A DNA stretch of 64,000 nucleotides, taken from Escherichia phage vB_Eco_QOTSP. The notes under the pieces are model-generated. The model did no database searches and was not told the DNA's origin. It was given only the letters and a program-made list of their open reading frames with translations. Made by a program: the position numbers and the translations under genes. Where the stretch lies: sequence record OY720014; one strand, written 5' to 3'. Below, in pieces: positions 15,750 to 59,784 of the stretch (its first letter is position 1; each line of letters begins with the position of its first letter).

Positions 15750-16458
<709 letters not shown>

Positions 16459-16465
<7 letters not shown>

Positions 16466-16488
16466 TACTGATGAGGTAGTGATACTAT
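16459..16488 (+). promoter_or_regulatory. early promoter (GTTTAC -35, TACTAT -10)
   Basis: GTTTAC, 18-nt spacer, TACTAT; -10 sits in the loop of inverted repeat gaggta...tacctc. Confidence 0.65.
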
Positions 16489-16519
16489 TACCTCATCAAA
16501 ATTAATTAGGAAAATAAAA

Positions 16520-16777
16520 ATGAAAACTTTCAAAGAGTTTGCTACAGAAACTATTATCACTGAATCTTCTCATGGTATGGAAGTAAAGCTTGGAATGGCT
16601 TTAGCTGAAGCTGAGCGTCTTTTTTCTCGTATTAAAGAACTTGCTGCTGCAGTCGATCCTTCATCTTTTAAAGGAGACCAAACTAAAGTTAAAGCACTTT
16701 TAGCATTATGCTCTGATGCAGGAGAAATCGCTAAGAACGGTTCTAAGATGAAGAAACGATTAGAAGATTTAAAATAA
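16520..16777 (+). CDS. small internal-protein-like protein with capsid-targeting-like N-terminus
   Basis: 85-aa ORF starting MKTFKEFATE, resembling the MKTYQEFIAE capsid-targeting sequence; own early promoter. Confidence 0.6.
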   Translation: MKTFKEFATETIITESSHGMEVKLGMALAEAERLFSRIKELAAAVDPSSFKGDQTKVKALLALCSDAGEIAKNGSKMKKRLEDLK

Positions 16778-16796
16778 TTTCACAAAGTTGTTTACA
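16766..16796 (+). repeat. 31-bp direct repeat, copy 2
   Basis: Identical to 16435..16465. Confidence 0.9.
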
Positions 16797-16819
16797 CGGG
16801 GTTTTAGTAGTGATACTAT
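16790..16819 (+). promoter_or_regulatory. early promoter (GTTTAC -35, TACTAT -10)
   Basis: GTTTAC, 18-nt spacer, TACTAT inside inverted repeat; followed by CCTATCAAAA box. Confidence 0.65.
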
Positions 16820-16855
16820 TACCCTATCAAAACAAATGTGAAATTGGAGAATAAA

Positions 16856-17089
16856 ATGAAAACGTATCAAGAATTTATTGCTGAAGCTGCTGATGTAAAA
16901 GTTGAGTTTATTTACATTGGCAAGAAAGATAAAATGGGCGAAATGCCTCATGGAGTTCTTCGTGATGCATTAGATAATTTCGGTCAACTCGCCGCAGAAG
17001 ATTACGGTGATAAAATTGTTGTTACTGGTCCGGCTGCAGTTATTGAAAAATGGGCAGCAGAAAATAAATCAATTTTTCGTAAAAAATGA
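16856..17089 (+). CDS. internal-protein-like protein (capsid targeting sequence MKTYQEFIAEA)
   Basis: ORF track 16838..17089 trimmed to ATG 16856 after GGAGAA; N-terminus MKTYQEFIAEA matches the T4 internal-protein targeting signal. Confidence 0.65.
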   Translation: MKTYQEFIAEAADVKVEFIYIGKKDKMGEMPHGVLRDALDNFGQLAAEDYGDKIVVTGPAAVIEKWAAENKSIFRKK

Positions 17090-17119
17090 GTTTACTTTTA
17101 GATAGGGTAGTGATACTAT
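17090..17119 (+). promoter_or_regulatory. early promoter (GTTTAC -35, TACTAT -10)
   Basis: GTTTAC immediately after the upstream stop; -10 in loop of gatagggta...taccctatc. Confidence 0.65.
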
Positions 17120-17147
17120 TACCCTATCAACTACTGAGGAGAATAAA

Positions 17148-17333
17148 ATGAAACGTTGTGAATTAATTCGAAATGTTGCTATTGCAATTTCTGCTTCCGC
17201 TTTTAGTTTTTCAATGTTTGTTGGATTTATATGCGGATTATTAACTACAGCAGAAAATGTGTTTTCACTTGTAGTAGCATTTTTAATTGGTTTAATTGCT
17301 ATCGTTATGGATAAAATTTCTAAAGGTGAATAA
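17148..17333 (+). CDS. small hydrophobic (membrane) protein
   Basis: 61-aa ORF with GGAGAA ribosome-binding site; predicted single transmembrane segment. Confidence 0.5.
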   Translation: MKRCELIRNVAIAISASAFSFSMFVGFICGLLTTAENVFSLVVAFLIGLIAIVMDKISKGE

Positions 17334-17744
17334 ATGAGTATTAACGAATATTATGTTTATGCCGGGGATTATGCAAATCCTTCTCATTTTGAAGGTAATT
17401 TAATACCTGATAAAGTTTTTAATACTCCTTTTGAAGCGTGGAGTTGGATTGAAAGTAAAAATGGATTTTCTTACCGTTATGTTGAAGTAACTGATTGGAG
17501 AGGAACTAAATATCCTAAAGACCATTATTACGTAAATCCATCTAAGGTAAATTTTCTTTTATTCGCAGGTGATAATTATTATCCTTGTGGTGGATATGAT
17601 GATTTAATTGCGTATGCTGAAACAGAAGATAAACTGCGTGATATCATTAAAGAAAATGAAAATAAACCGGATTATGGTTCCAATCGCTTTGACTGGTGGC
17701 AAATCGTAAATGCCCATACTCATGCTATCGTTGATAGAGGCTGA
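17334..17744 (+). CDS. hypothetical protein
   Basis: 136-aa ORF; start overlaps upstream stop. Confidence 0.6.
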   Translation: MSINEYYVYAGDYANPSHFEGNLIPDKVFNTPFEAWSWIESKNGFSYRYVEVTDWRGTKYPKDHYYVNPSKVNFLLFAGDNYYPCGGYDDLIAYAETEDKLRDIIKENENKPDYGSNRFDWWQIVNAHTHAIVDRG

Positions 17745-17767
17745 CAATGATTCTTTATGCTAAAGTA
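17742..17767 (+). repeat. 26-bp direct repeat, copy 1 (stop codon plus MILYAKV start)
   Basis: tgacaatgattctttatgctaaagta; 24 of 26 identical to 18197..18222. Confidence 0.85.
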
Positions 17768-17794
17768 CTACCTTATAGGAATGATATTGCTTAA
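17747..17794 (+). pseudogene. truncated duplicate of the N-terminus of the gene at 18202 (MILYAKV...)
   Basis: 15-codon ORF MILYAKVLPYRNDIA sharing its first 7 codons with the 18202 gene. Confidence 0.4.
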
Positions 17795-17818
17795 ATTAAT
17801 ATTGAGGTAGCTGAGACT

Positions 17819-18199
17819 ATGAAATTAATTAAATCGGGTGGAACCAGATGGGTACTACTAACACGTAAGTATGCTATTAAGTTCCCTATCCCCAAGACAT
17901 GGAAACACTTCGTGCAGGGTATGCTCAGCAATCTTACAGAAGGTCAGTGGAAGGGGTATGATAACAAGCACCTATGCCCAATAGCATACTCAAACAGATT
18001 TGGTCTCATGGTTGTGATGCACAAAGCAGAGCCAGTTGAGGATAAGGAGCTTTTTAAATCTGATTTGCAAAAGCTCTATAATGATGTTGATGGTGATGAA
18101 TGCAGAACGCTTGACCGTGATTTCTTTGAGTATGATGCCTTTCCAAAGAACTTTGGCTACTACAAAGGTAGATTGGTCAAGATAGACTACGGAGTGTGA
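17819..18199 (+). CDS. hypothetical protein in a GC-richer inserted segment
   Basis: 126-aa ORF with visibly higher GC than neighbours; flanked by the 26-bp direct repeats. Confidence 0.6.
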   Translation: MKLIKSGGTRWVLLTRKYAIKFPIPKTWKHFVQGMLSNLTEGQWKGYDNKHLCPIAYSNRFGLMVVMHKAEPVEDKELFKSDLQKLYNDVDGDECRTLDRDFFEYDAFPKNFGYYKGRLVKIDYGV

Positions 18200-18222
18200 T
18201 AATGATTCTTTATGCAAAAGTA
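18197..18222 (+). repeat. 26-bp direct repeat, copy 2
   Basis: tgataatgattctttatgcaaaagta. Confidence 0.85.
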
Positions 18223-18492
18223 TCATCCATTGAAAATGGATATAAATATGATCAAGAAGCAGCTAAAGCCTTGATTGATGATTATGGCATTTTAACATGT
18301 TTTGAAGTTGAAAAGGTTTACATTGACCGTTCATCTTCTCAGGTTAAATTAGTAAAAGAAGACCGTAAATTTAATACAGTAAATTTTGATTTCTTTATTG
18401 AAACAGAAAAAGGTCCTCTTGAATATGATATTTTCAAGAATCCTTTGGGTCTTGAATGTATTCAGAAAACGTATATTAATGCAGCGTGGTGA
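18202..18492 (+). CDS. hypothetical protein
   Basis: ORF track 18196..18492 trimmed to ATG 18202; 96 aa. Confidence 0.6.
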   Translation: MILYAKVSSIENGYKYDQEAAKALIDDYGILTCFEVEKVYIDRSSSQVKLVKEDRKFNTVNFDFFIETEKGPLEYDIFKNPLGLECIQKTYINAAW

Positions 18493-18494
18493 AA

Positions 18495-19089
18495 ATGAAT
18501 ATTTGTTTAGGTACTACAATTCCGCAGGGTTACGTAATTGATGTCACTACCTGGGAAAATGATGGTGACAACTATAAAACTAAAACACTGTTTGGCGTAG
18601 AAGAGCATGAAATCTTACAATTCCAATATCTTTTAAAGAAGTTTAAAAGCAGACATTCTAGTACTAAAGCTGAACGTTATTGTGGTAATGGCTTGTTCAG
18701 CGAGCAATCGCTTTTTATTTATGAATACTTGGTTGAAGGACTGTTCTCAGAACAACTTTATCCAGAATTCATTAAAAAGGTAGCAATCGCTTTTTATTTA
18801 TGAATACTTGGTTGAAGGACTGTTCTCAGAACAACTTTATCCAGAATTCATTAAAAAGGTCTTTGACATAGAAGTTGACCTTGGTAATAAATCCGAAGAA
18901 GACGAAGAACGTGTATTTGACTTATTCTTTGTGAATGGTAATAAAGTGCTTGAAGGACTTATTAATATTTTAGGCAGTGCTTCTGAGTATTATGATTATG
19001 ATTTTTTGCGTGTAGTTGAGAGTGTTAAATACTCTTATATAGAAAAAGAAATTGTTTTGCCGACCGTTAAAATGTTTAATTTGCTTTAA
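18495..19089 (+). pseudogene. hypothetical gene split into two ORFs by a 79-bp tandem duplication
   Basis: ORFs 18495..18803 and 18808..19089 join into one frame if one repeat copy is removed; peptide EGLFSEQLYPEFIKKV occurs in both. Confidence 0.5.
18703..18860 (+). repeat. perfect 79-bp tandem duplication (2 copies)
   Basis: 18703..18781 and 18782..18860 are identical; 79 is not a multiple of 3, so the frame shifts. Confidence 0.9.
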
Positions 19090-19341: not shown

Positions 19342-19415
<74 letters not shown>

Positions 19416-19461
19416 ATTTATGACTCGTCGTGAGACGCTCAGTTCTTTATTAGGGACTGAT

Positions 19462-20070
19462 ATGCATTTTTATCTTTATAAAATAACAAATAAAATTAAT
19501 AATAAAATTTATATTGGTGTGCATTCTACCGAAAATTTAGATGATGGATATATGGGTTCTGGTAAATTATTAAAAAGAGCCCAAGATAAATATGGTATAG
19601 AAAATTTTTCTAAAGAAATATTAGAGTATTTTGACGATAAAGAATCTATGCTTGAAGCCGAGAAAAATATTGTCACAGAAGAGTTTTTAAATAGACCAGA
19701 TGTGTATAATTTAAAACTTGGAGGTGAAGGTGGATGGGATCATATAAATAATTATCCTATGACAGATCAGCAACGCGAATTAATTTCATTGGGTGTTAAA
19801 AAGGCGCATTCTAACGGAAAATTAAAAGGATGGTCTTCAAATGGATTAATGAAGAATGGCTTTGCTGGTAAAACTCATTCTCAAGAAGCTAAACGTAAAA
19901 TAGCAAAAGCAAACGAAGCAAAAGTTTCTGCGGATGAAAGAAAAAGAAGAATAGAAATTTCTAAATTATATGATTTTTCTAAACGTGGCGAATTGTCTAA
20001 ATATGCTAAGCATATTGGCGTAAGTCATACTCAAGCAAAAAGAATTCTAAATCAAATTAACAATATATAA
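19462..20070 (+). CDS. GIY-YIG homing endonuclease (SegB-like), inside the tRNA cluster
   Basis: ORF track 19420..20070; N-terminal YLYKITNKINNKIYIGVH ... GYMGSG is the GIY-YIG motif; likely start at M15 (19462). Confidence 0.8.
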   Translation: MHFYLYKITNKINNKIYIGVHSTENLDDGYMGSGKLLKRAQDKYGIENFSKEILEYFDDKESMLEAEKNIVTEEFLNRPDVYNLKLGGEGGWDHINNYPMTDQQRELISLGVKKAHSNGKLKGWSSNGLMKNGFAGKTHSQEAKRKIAKANEAKVSADERKRRIEISKLYDFSKRGELSKYAKHIGVSHTQAKRILNQINNI

Positions 20071-20076
20071 ATATTT

Positions 20077-20166
20077 GGAGGCGTGGCAGAGTGGTTTAAT
20101 GCACCGGTCTTGAAAACCGGCAGTCGCTCCGGCGACTCATAGGTTCAAATCCTATCGCCTCCGCCA
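20077..20166 (+). tRNA. tRNA-Ser (anticodon UGA), long variable arm
   Basis: Acceptor ggaggcg/cgcctcc, anticodon loop ctTGAaa, T-loop TTCAAAT, encoded CCA. Confidence 0.85.
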
Positions 20167-34821: not shown

Positions 34822-35364
34822 ATGAAAGCTGTAATTGAAACAACTGATTTGTTCGGTGACCTGGTTATCGAAAAACGTGATAATGTATACGTTCTGACGC
34901 AGGAAGACGATAGTATTACTATTCTTCCTATGGAACTGGCTGCGATTTTATCTTATGCTCCCTCAGGAGTTACCGGTGTAACTAATATTACAGGCGACCT
35001 CCAAGTTCGTTTTTATCGTGGCCTTTACGGCGGTAATATTGAAACTGAATTTATGTGTCTTTCTATCAACAATTGGGCAACATTCGTTGCCAAGGTGAAA
35101 GAATTCTTGGAATCTGAAACAGTCGAAACACCCGAAAAGGCTAAACTTCAATGGGCTAAAGATCGCGGTGCTAGCATTATTAATCCAGTAGCTGCAAATT
35201 ATACTACGACTTTGGATGTCAAGACTTCTTATGAAGATGGCGATGTCGTACTTGTTCGCCAAATTGATGATTCTCGAGCACATATTGTCACATTTACCAA
35301 AGACGAAGCTATTGCACTAAAGACTTATCTTGATTCTGTTATTCCAACTATGATTTCAAAGTGA
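34822..35364 (+). CDS. hypothetical protein (paralog of 35371..35892)
   Basis: 180 aa; C-terminal ...EAIALKTYLDSVIPTMISK parallels the next gene. Confidence 0.6.
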   Translation: MKAVIETTDLFGDLVIEKRDNVYVLTQEDDSITILPMELAAILSYAPSGVTGVTNITGDLQVRFYRGLYGGNIETEFMCLSINNWATFVAKVKEFLESETVETPEKAKLQWAKDRGASIINPVAANYTTTLDVKTSYEDGDVVLVRQIDDSRAHIVTFTKDEAIALKTYLDSVIPTMISK

Positions 35365-59097: not shown

Positions 59098-59784
59098 ATG
59101 AAACTGTCTAAAGATACTACTGCTCTGCTTAAAAATTTCGCTACTATTAACTCCGGTATTATGCTTAAATCCGGTCAATTTATTATGACTCGCGCAGTTA
59201 ATGGTACAACTTACGCGGAAGCAAATATTTCTGACACTATTGATTTTGATGTAGCAATTTACGATTTAAACGGTTTTCTTGGTATTCTGTCTCTAGTTAA
59301 TGATGATGCAGAAATTTCCCAGTCAGAAGATGGAAATATTAAAATTGCTGATGCCCGTTCAACAATTTTTTGGCCAGCAGCCGATCCGAGTACAGTAGTT
59401 GCTCCTAATAAACCAATTCCATTCCCGGTAGCATCTGTTGTTACTGAAATTAAAGCTGAAGACCTTCAACAACTGTTGCGTGTATCTCGTGGTCTGCAGA
59501 TTGATACAATTGCTATCACGGTAAAAGAAGGTAAAATCGTAATTAACGGTTTTAATAAAGTAGAAGATTCTGCTTTGACTCGTGTTAAATATTCTTTGAC
59601 TCTTGGTGATTATGATGGTGAAAATACATTTAATTTCATTATCAATATGGCAAATATGAAAATGCAACCAGGAAATTATAAACTTCTGCTCTGGGCAAAA
59701 GGTAAACAAGGTGCTGCTAAATTTGAAGGTGAACATGCGAATTATGTAGTAGCTCTTGAAGCTGATTCTACCCACGATTTTTAA
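59098..59784 (+). CDS. 45: sliding clamp gp45
   Basis: 228 aa; MKLSKDTTALLKNFATINSGIMLKSGQFIMTRAV recognised as T4 gp45. Confidence 0.95.
   Translation: MKLSKDTTALLKNFATINSGIMLKSGQFIMTRAVNGTTYAEANISDTIDFDVAIYDLNGFLGILSLVNDDAEISQSEDGNIKIADARSTIFWPAADPSTVVAPNKPIPFPVASVVTEIKAEDLQQLLRVSRGLQIDTIAITVKEGKIVINGFNKVEDSALTRVKYSLTLGDYDGENTFNFIINMANMKMQPGNYKLLLWAKGKQGAAKFEGEHANYVVALEADSTHDF

Follow-up and report, generated by a model that had tools for sequence, protein, structure and literature searches.

Probable capture of a non-T4 gene encoding a predicted kinase-like protein at the tRNA.3/tRNA.2 junction of a Tequatrovirus

How did a 126 aa open reading frame (ORF) come to lie between two copies of the start of its downstream neighbour, and what does it encode? 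These questions are raised by a locus in Escherichia phage vB_Eco_QOTSP (sequence record OY720014), of which a stretch of 64,000 nt, referred to below as the window, was analysed. The ORF, designated ORF126, separates homologues of the T4 genes tRNA.3 and tRNA.2 in a Tequatrovirus (T4-like) genome (Table 1). The original prediction, made from the sequence alone, was that a foreign gene had been inserted by recombination, with duplication of the start of the target gene. This view is supported by an empty site in 487 phage records, by seven carriers of the insertion and by relatives of the insert in non-T4 phages. Taken as a whole, the locus is probably best explained by the one-time capture of a non-T4 cassette at the tRNA.3/tRNA.2 junction by illegitimate recombination, with a cargo predicted to be kinase-like.

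The two copies of the repeat, TGACAATGATTCTTTATGCTAAAGTA (17742–17767) and TGATAATGATTCTTTATGCAAAAGTA (18197–18222), are identical at 24 of 26 positions. Each holds the stop codon of the preceding gene, tRNA.3 on the left and ORF126 on the right, followed by the start MILYAKV (ATGs at 17747 and 18202). In the left copy, the tRNA.3 stop occupies 17742–17744 and the ATG opens only 15 codons before a TAA at 17792–17794; a ribosome-binding site (GAGG, 17804–17807) and ORF126 (17819–18199) follow, whilst the right copy begins an intact 96 aa gene that matches phrog_2023 over positions 1–94 of 95. In all these respects the sequence agrees with the original prediction. The 26 nt sequence has no further match in the window at up to three mismatches, and none was obtained in 100 dinucleotide-preserving shuffles. 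Similarity reaches beyond the predicted repeat to 31 nt (17737–17767 and 18192–18222; 87% identity, period 455 nt, GAGgcTGA versus GAGtgTGA), and the additional 5 nt fall in donor-derived codons.

Between the copies lies a unique segment of 429 nt (17768–18196), referred to here as the insert. A megablast search with positions 17100–18900 returned more than 850 related records, most of which aligned in pieces that skipped the insert. A synthetic empty site was assembled from the left flank, a single repeat and the right flank, with a contiguous match defined by query coverage of at least 80%. It was found contiguously in 487 phage records, assigned to Tequatrovirus, and in T6 the identity was 98.8%. 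The comparison with T4-like genomes lacking the insert, which had been proposed as a check, thus established the single-copy site as the norm. The insert itself was present at an identity of at least 99% in nine records only, which represent seven distinct Tequatroviruses: vB_Eco_EL, PaulHMueller (Bas45 of the BASEL collection), ESh17, PhiZZ30, G10400, G4507 and ECP52. Their origins include Switzerland, the USA, the UK and Germany. The junctions are base-identical in all of them, which argues for one insertion event, and the 15-codon ORF is the same throughout except for one synonymous change. Replication of the arrangement, to the base, in seven independently isolated and sequenced phages also refutes an assembly or chimera artefact, for which no support was found and the probability of which we regard as virtually nil.

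The empty sites also account for the two positions at which the repeat copies differ. Phage AV122 has an empty-site allele identical to the left copy (TGAC...GCT), and phage T6 one identical to the right copy (TGAT...GCA); a third combination is seen in teqhad, and in PaulHMueller both repeat copies are identical. Since the copies match natural empty-site alleles, both represent target sequence, and the mismatches reflect standing polymorphism reshuffled by recombination in the flanks, not decay.

Amongst the carriers, the insert differs at 0–7 of 429 positions and the left flank at 0–13 of 590. The allele is therefore not brand new, and has been moved or lost by homologous exchange. Divergence of the insert that is about like that of its flanks would also fit the opposite history, in which ORF126 is ancestral in Tequatroviruses, most lineages have lost it by recombination between the 26 nt repeats and the seven carriers retain the old state; such recombination would regenerate exactly the empty site that is observed. 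However, carriers number seven phages (nine records) against 487 empty-site records, and a duplicated gene start with a 15-codon stub is an insertion scar rather than an ancestral design. The composition of ORF126 and the distribution of its relatives bear on the same question.

The GC content of the insert is 0.401 and that of ORF126 0.412, compared with 0.350 for the window and 0.29–0.33 for the flanking genes; only 4.7% of 429 nt segments are as GC-rich as the insert. At third codon positions, GC content (GC3) is 0.449 in ORF126 against a mean of 0.253 over 72 ORFs (z=2.9), and the flanking T4 genes have values of 0.11–0.19. The codon-usage score of ORF126 is the third lowest amongst the 72 ORFs (z=−3.1). 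The GC-richness that had been noticed by eye was therefore borne out by GC, GC3 and codon usage, none of which is typical of this phage. Two ORFs elsewhere, 34963–35283 and 59359–59736 (both on the minus strand), depart further from typical codon usage than ORF126 does (log-odds −0.25 and −0.19; gene mean, +0.19), and the former has a GC content of 0.408. They may be other imported genes, or no real genes.

Relatives of the insert were found in phages outside the T4 group, at 66–86% DNA identity. In blastn comparisons, phi G17 (Gamaleyavirus, Schitoviridae) is 74% identical over 17762–18207, a match that includes the 51 nt leader upstream of the ORF126 ATG; the leader was absent from all 12 other relatives compared. 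Identity to the insert is 73% in Moonfish (Schitoviridae), 78% in A7_1 and A5-4 (Vequintavirinae), 66% in GaoY1-9D (Drexlerviridae) and 75–86% in metagenomic contigs, amongst them two 48 kb contigs with a DUF3987 primase gene (48 kb contigs, 80–85%). The best relative, at 86%, is an 821 bp metagenome scaffold in which the end of the upstream gene resembles that of the schitovirus Moonfish. None of the six contigs encoding the closest homologues exceeded this 86%. Searches of IMG/VR for related loci returned nothing, whether the query was the protein alone or the alignment of its family, and a scan of JGI metagenomes returned two loci only, at 66–73% amino acid identity.

The homologues and their host loci have a GC content of 0.39–0.43 and a GC3 of 0.41–0.53, with the exception of the GaoY1-9D gene (0.354 and 0.365). 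Against the GC and GC3 of ORF126 (0.412 and 0.449), those of phi G17 are 0.419 and 0.471, those of Moonfish 0.407 and 0.444 and those of the related locus L015 0.407 and 0.441, such that the Schitoviridae relatives bracket ORF126. As the composition of the relatives equals that of the insert, ORF126 has kept a donor-type composition in a genome in which its neighbours have a GC3 of 0.11–0.19. These results also bear on an ancestral ORF126: its composition and codon usage are foreign and match phages of 41% GC, and a DNA identity of 74–86% to Schitoviridae, Vequintavirinae and siphophage-like contigs is far above what would be anticipated between families with no other detectable DNA in common here. 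We consider ancestry with widespread loss very unlikely. ORF126 is a horizontally acquired gene, with patchy presence alongside an intact empty site, atypical composition and its closest relatives in other lineages.

The surroundings of the cassette in phi G17 deserve a separate mention. In phi G17 (1833–2047), the kinase-like gene and its leader are preceded by a 39-codon fragment of a 'MNLKLFMMFEGG...' gene; in a related metagenomic contig (1406–1708), the full 100 aa 'MNLKLFMMFEGG...' gene lies downstream of the kinase-like gene. Rearrangement of the kinase-like cassette has therefore taken place within Gamaleyavirus-like phages too.

How the cassette arrived can be reconstructed in outline. 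A 429 nt cassette, consisting of a leader of about 51 nt with its own ribosome-binding site and a gene of 381 nt, would have been copied or joined once into a Tequatrovirus genome from the gene pool of non-T4 coliphages of about 41% GC, of which Gamaleyavirus-like Schitoviridae would be the closest known lineage. The landing site would have been exactly the tRNA.3/tRNA.2 gene junction, with joints staggered on the target: the left joint after ...GCTAAAGTA (...AAAGTA), the right one re-entering 26 nt upstream at TGAnnATGATT. On this account, the stop/start overlap and the first seven tRNA.2 codons are present twice because the joints were staggered. Illegitimate recombination with staggered joints is the most likely mechanism that we infer from this geometry. 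It may have taken place in a mixed infection, either through a template switch by the recombination-dependent replication machinery of T4 or through capture of a foreign fragment at a break; a template switch out and back and capture at a resected or staggered break would be equally expected to leave such a geometry.

It is possible that short similarity between the stop-NN-ATG junctions of donor and target guided the joints. In a microhomology model of this kind, the leader in the donor would have a sequence like AAAGTA at its 5′ edge, and the gene would be followed by GAGTGTGAnnATGATT. There is a resemblance between the end of tRNA.3 (AGAGGCTGA) and the final codons of ORF126 (GGAGTGTGA). 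In phi G17, A7_1 and one 48 kb contig, the gene is followed by TGActATGA(T/A)T, which has the same stop-NN-ATG layout as the target TGAtaATGATT, and the leader begins with AAAGcAC in phi G17 versus AAAGtAC in the window.

A GIY-YIG homing-endonuclease gene lies 1.2 kb downstream (19420–20070), and it has been proposed that breaks made by endonucleases favour illegitimate exchange amongst relatives of T4 (PMC2993671; PMC13096335). Both would suit a mobile element placed by a transposase, integrase or homing endonuclease, with the repeat as an enzymatic target-site duplication. However, no terminal inverted repeats were found at the ends of the insert and no transposase, integrase or recombinase gene within it, its only ORF being that of the kinase-like protein, which distinguishes it from transposable elements. 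The homologous genes in other phages stand in unrelated contexts, without the 26 nt repeat. To our knowledge, a duplication of 26 nt also far exceeds the stagger of known transposases and of GIY-YIG or HNH nucleases. Enzymatic placement is thus highly improbable.

A further route to an insert between two copies of a shared sequence is known from T4-type phages. Cassettes of ORFan genes are shuffled in these phages, in RB49 and phi1 by means of PeSL elements (Arbiol et al. 2010, PMC2839356), which are pre-existing intergenic repeats of about 50–100 nt comprising an early (sigma-70-like) promoter and a stem–loop terminator, and the formation of mini-circles between flanking repeats has been demonstrated (PMC2839356). 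By analogy, the ORF126 cassette could have entered as a small circle with one 26 nt copy, through a single homologous crossover at the resident copy; the match of the two copies to different natural alleles is what would be expected if circle and recipient were different Tequatroviruses. Such a circle accounts for spread amongst T4-like phages, but not for the origin of the arrangement: 26 nt of the tRNA.2 start would not be expected in a non-T4 donor, and are absent from all 13 relatives examined. Neither a promoter-like site common to both copies nor a terminator-like stem–loop in or next to them was found, and the repeat is therefore no PeSL. Moreover, 26 nt is very short for efficient homologous exchange. 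We rate entry as a circle as unlikely, and return to one-time capture by illegitimate recombination.

The captured gene would have left the operon in working order. ORF126 would be translated from its imported Shine–Dalgarno sequence. The AGAGG once provided by tRNA.3 is replaced by a GGAG within the final codons of ORF126, at a distance of 7 nt from the tRNA.2 ATG, and the resulting GGAG N2 TGA TA ATG would give tRNA.2 both a ribosome-binding site and stop/start coupling. No terminator was predicted in the insert. The insertion allele may since have circulated amongst Tequatroviruses by ordinary homologous recombination in the flanks, and the insert could presumably be lost again through recombination between the repeats.

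Insertion of this kind is well documented in the hyperplastic regions of T4-type phages, here without the usual regulatory-cassette repeats. Like a PeSL cassette, the insert is a lone small gene of unknown function in a hyperplastic region, flanked by direct repeats, patchily distributed and potentially excisable by repeat recombination. Unlike PeSL repeats, its repeats are 26–31 nt of a coding gene junction and were created by the insertion itself, and the gene comes from outside the T4 superfamily. There is also a resemblance to morons (Hendrix et al. 2000), which, as far as the account relayed in PMC2839356 goes, are solitary foreign genes of differing composition, placed between two residents by undefined, probably illegitimate recombination; in contrast to morons as described there, ORF126 has no detected promoter or terminator of its own, is co-oriented and translationally integrated with its neighbours, and has a leader with a ribosome-binding site only. 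The locus shows that import is possible at a translationally coupled gene junction in the absence of a PeSL-type cassette.

Short-homology illegitimate recombination in T4 generates deletions, duplications and amplifications between short repeats. The ORF126 insertion is similar in producing a direct duplication, and may be so in having joints at very short similar sequences, but differs in that foreign DNA was captured, whereas those events rearrange the phage's own DNA. A recent example from the same region is the SegB-linked amplification of tRNA genes with microhomology at the joints (PMC13096335). With joints, empty site, two target alleles and donor relatives all visible, the locus represents an unusually clean natural record of gene capture by a T4-type phage from an unrelated one, and is suited as a worked example and to PCR assays of excision and re-insertion.

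What the cassette encodes is the more interesting part of the finding. The only PHROGs match of ORF126 (E≤0.01) is phrog_4301, annotated 'unknown function'. A set of 45 close homologues (110–142 aa) was collected, and a profile search of 1.84 billion cluster representatives identified 1025 relatives at E≤1e-3, 432 of them at E≤1e-10, nearly all 107–160 aa in length. Amongst the best 150 of the 1025 representatives, nearly all end 1–3 residues past the last position of the profile, as ORF126 does. Members of the family were found in jumbo phages of Escherichia, Erwinia, Aeromonas, Klebsiella, Ralstonia and Pseudomonas, in T4-like phages of the Dhakavirus group, in a Felix-O1-sized phage and in others. 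G7, R10, K21 and E41 do not vary across 131 diverse members, in which D123-Y124 is almost invariant (consensus ...AIK...E...DxKxxNFG...IDYG), and D106 and N111 are invariant across 44 close homologues.

Of these, K21, E41, D106, N111 and D123 are catalytic-type residues. Homology and structure prediction for the 126 aa protein, proposed with the original prediction, thus led to a large phage family with a predicted protein-kinase fold. The AlphaFold2 model of ORF126 (pLDDT 91.3, pTM 0.81) opens with strand-strand-strand-helix-strand-strand, the order of a kinase N-lobe, and continues with two helices and a beta hairpin. The predicted elements thus comprise a five-strand N-lobe with helix alpha-C, a hinge, a helix, a catalytic loop and a hairpin with a metal-binding aspartate, as in protein-kinase-like folds. 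Foldseek matched the model to TTK and Lpg2603 in the PDB (E<1e-3), and to a 'protein kinase domain-containing protein' of RP12 in BFVD (1e-9). The beta-3 lysine would be K21 (YAIK, compare VAIK) and the alpha-C glutamate E41, at a spacing of 20 residues; in PKA the spacing is 19. A catalytic loop of the form D-x-x-x-x-N is followed 12–13 residues later by a DFG-type aspartate, and the family hidden Markov model (vDakPeNfG...kiDYg) aligns with sDLKPANF...LIDFG of TTK in exact register. The model and the conserved residues suggest that ORF126 carries the predicted ATP-binding and catalytic constellation of a protein kinase.

At 35% identity (E=2e-19), ORF126 matches the N-terminal half of a 267 aa protein, annotated by its depositors as a Ser/Thr kinase, from the Kosakonia jumbo phage Kc263, and a weak match to PIP49_C, a kinase domain, was seen in one of 131 diverse family representatives (E=0.0011). 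Curated kinase models matched neither ORF126 nor 44 close homologues. Amongst solved structures, a search with the single ORF126 sequence gave a match to the MS2 coat protein only, which was rejected as spurious, and a search with a 44-sequence profile gave nothing. DUF3440 is sub-threshold on residues 19–71 of ORF126 (E=0.087, 13 bits against a 25-bit cut-off) and weak in 14 of 44 close homologues (best E=4.5e-4), and was treated as insignificant. In the Kc263 protein (1450–2253, labelled PknA), the ORF126-like module spans residues 18–140 and is followed by a C-terminal extension of about 125 aa; the protein as a whole has no Pfam match. Longer relatives of this kind may reveal what the missing C-lobe looks like.

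Several results weigh against our reading of the capture or of its cargo. The true donor was not found, the nearest relative being 86% identical and phi G17 alone having the leader. Clustering of the carrier flanks, sought as a sign of recent clonal spread, was not seen: in their flanks, carriers resemble empty-site phages as closely as they resemble one another. When the loci of eight relatives were scanned for the best matches to the 17 nt and 11 nt edges of the repeat, the phi G17 site matched the 17 nt target edge at 11 of 17 positions, and chance matches of 11–13 of 17 occurred elsewhere in its 4.4 kb locus. Microhomology at the joints, whilst suggested by the junction layout, is thus not above chance with the available relatives. 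As for the cargo, no family in Pfam, NCBIfam or PADLOC matches ORF126, and in sequence it is weakly linked to solved kinases (E=0.1, family model against TTK). ORF126 ends in D123-Y-G-V, 3 residues past the DFG-equivalent aspartate, and has neither an activation segment nor helices F to I. Without a C-lobe after the DFG-equivalent, the catalytic competence of the modelled protein is uncertain.

Truncation on this scale also sets ORF126 apart from known minimal kinases. OspG (4q5h), HopBF1 (6pwd), Ark1 (8yv5), Bud32 (3en9) and Rio (1zp9) have 170–270 residues and retain a portion of the C-lobe beyond the DFG motif; in ORF126 and nearly the entire family, the chain ends 1–3 residues after D-Y-G, and no membership of these sequence families was found. 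From the predicted active-site geometry we infer an ATP-dependent phosphotransferase or ATP-binding module. ORF126 may act as such a phosphotransferase, or at least as an ATP-binding protein, on a host or phage target early in infection, and a counter-defence role is possible.

The best-known comparison is T7 gp0.7 (T7K), a broad anti-defence kinase (PMC13645617). ORF126 resembles T7K in being phage-encoded, in its (predicted) kinase fold and in its position in an early or accessory region, and the parallel suggests the hypothesis that host or defence proteins are phosphorylated. Unlike T7K, which has a D-P-V motif and a C-terminal shut-off domain, ORF126 has D-Y-G, lacks a shut-off domain and falls in a different PHROG; membership of the gp0.7 family was ruled out by the match to phrog_4301 only, by the DYG motif and by the lack of any further domain. 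The BASEL survey reported kinases only in Autographiviridae and P1 (PMC13645617), yet BASEL phage Bas45 (PaulHMueller) carries ORF126.

We tentatively speculate that the family consists of active 'half-kinases', the smallest kinase-fold enzymes known (about 120 residues, ending at the DFG aspartate), encoded by accessory genes traded across phage families, with host or defence components, or else a small-molecule signal, as substrates for phosphorylation. They would form a second, anti-defence lineage of phage kinases unrelated to T7K. This proposal is possible, although on balance we doubt it. Independently of it, the cargo points to a very large unannotated family of about 120 aa with a predicted kinase fold, spread over jumbo, T4-like, rV5-like (Vequintavirinae), N4-like (Schitoviridae) and Drexlerviridae phages. 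Since recent work has shown that phages use kinases as broad weapons of counter-defence, the ORF126 family is worth testing, and Bas45 offers a ready experimental system.

Table 1. Features of the tRNA.4–tRNA.2 region in the window
Feature	Position	Strand	Basis
tRNA.4	17148–17333		Local gene order
tRNA.3 homologue, 136 aa, upstream of the insertion site	17334–17744	+	phrog_1411, E=9e-51; orthologue is tRNA.3 in RB32
Left 26 nt repeat: tRNA.3 stop, 2 nt, first seven tRNA.2 codons (MILYAKV)	17742–17767	+	
Orphaned tRNA.2 start, 15-codon ORF MILYAKVLPYRNDIA, TAA stop	17747–17794	+	Read from the sequence
Imported 5′ leader, Shine–Dalgarno GAGG at 17804–17807	17768–17818	+	Homologous to the phi G17 intergenic leader
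ORF126, imported cargo, 126 aa, minimal protein-kinase-like fold (predicted); K21, E41, D106, N111, D123	17819–18199	+	
Right 26 nt repeat; TGA is the ORF126 stop, ATG at 18202 is the tRNA.2 start	18197–18222	+	
Intact tRNA.2 homologue, 96 aa, gene with duplicated start	18202–18492	+	phrog_2023, positions 1–94 of 95, E=1.5e-48; tRNA.2 in RB32 and T6

The locus sits in a variable region bounded by gene 57B and internal-protein genes at one end and by the tRNA cluster at the other. ORF listing, PHROGs matches and the annotations of relatives, RB32 and PaulHMueller amongst them, give the gene order tRNA.4, tRNA.3, the insert, tRNA.2, an RB69ORF151c-like gene and then tRNA genes split by the GIY-YIG endonuclease gene. 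A literature search on the functions of T4 tRNA.2 and tRNA.3 found nothing.

Three minor observations were made nearby. The RB69ORF151c-like gene contains a perfect tandem duplication of 79 nt (18703–18781 and 18782–18860, 100% identical), which is not a multiple of 3 and splits the gene, 516 nt in relatives, into ORFs at 18495–18803 and 18808–19089. Its junction occurs in no record of the phage collection, and all 173 matching records align in two pieces onto one copy. The GIY-YIG gene (216 aa) lies between tRNA-Gly (19342–19415) and tRNA-Ser (20077–20166), at the position of a tRNA-Pro that is present in RB32, PaulHMueller and ESh17 and absent from the window; vB_Eco_EL is arranged like the window. 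Finally, an early-promoter-like element occurs three times (16431–16525, 16762–16856 and 17090–17130), as GTTTACA N17 TACTAT followed by GTAGTGATACTATTACC..ATCAA. The copies precede two small internal-protein-like ORFs (16520–16777 and 16838–17089) and tRNA.4. They correspond to the '43 bp direct repeat' of the RB32 annotation for Ip7/Ip9, and have an analogue in the regulatory repeats to which the shuffling of ip genes has been attributed.

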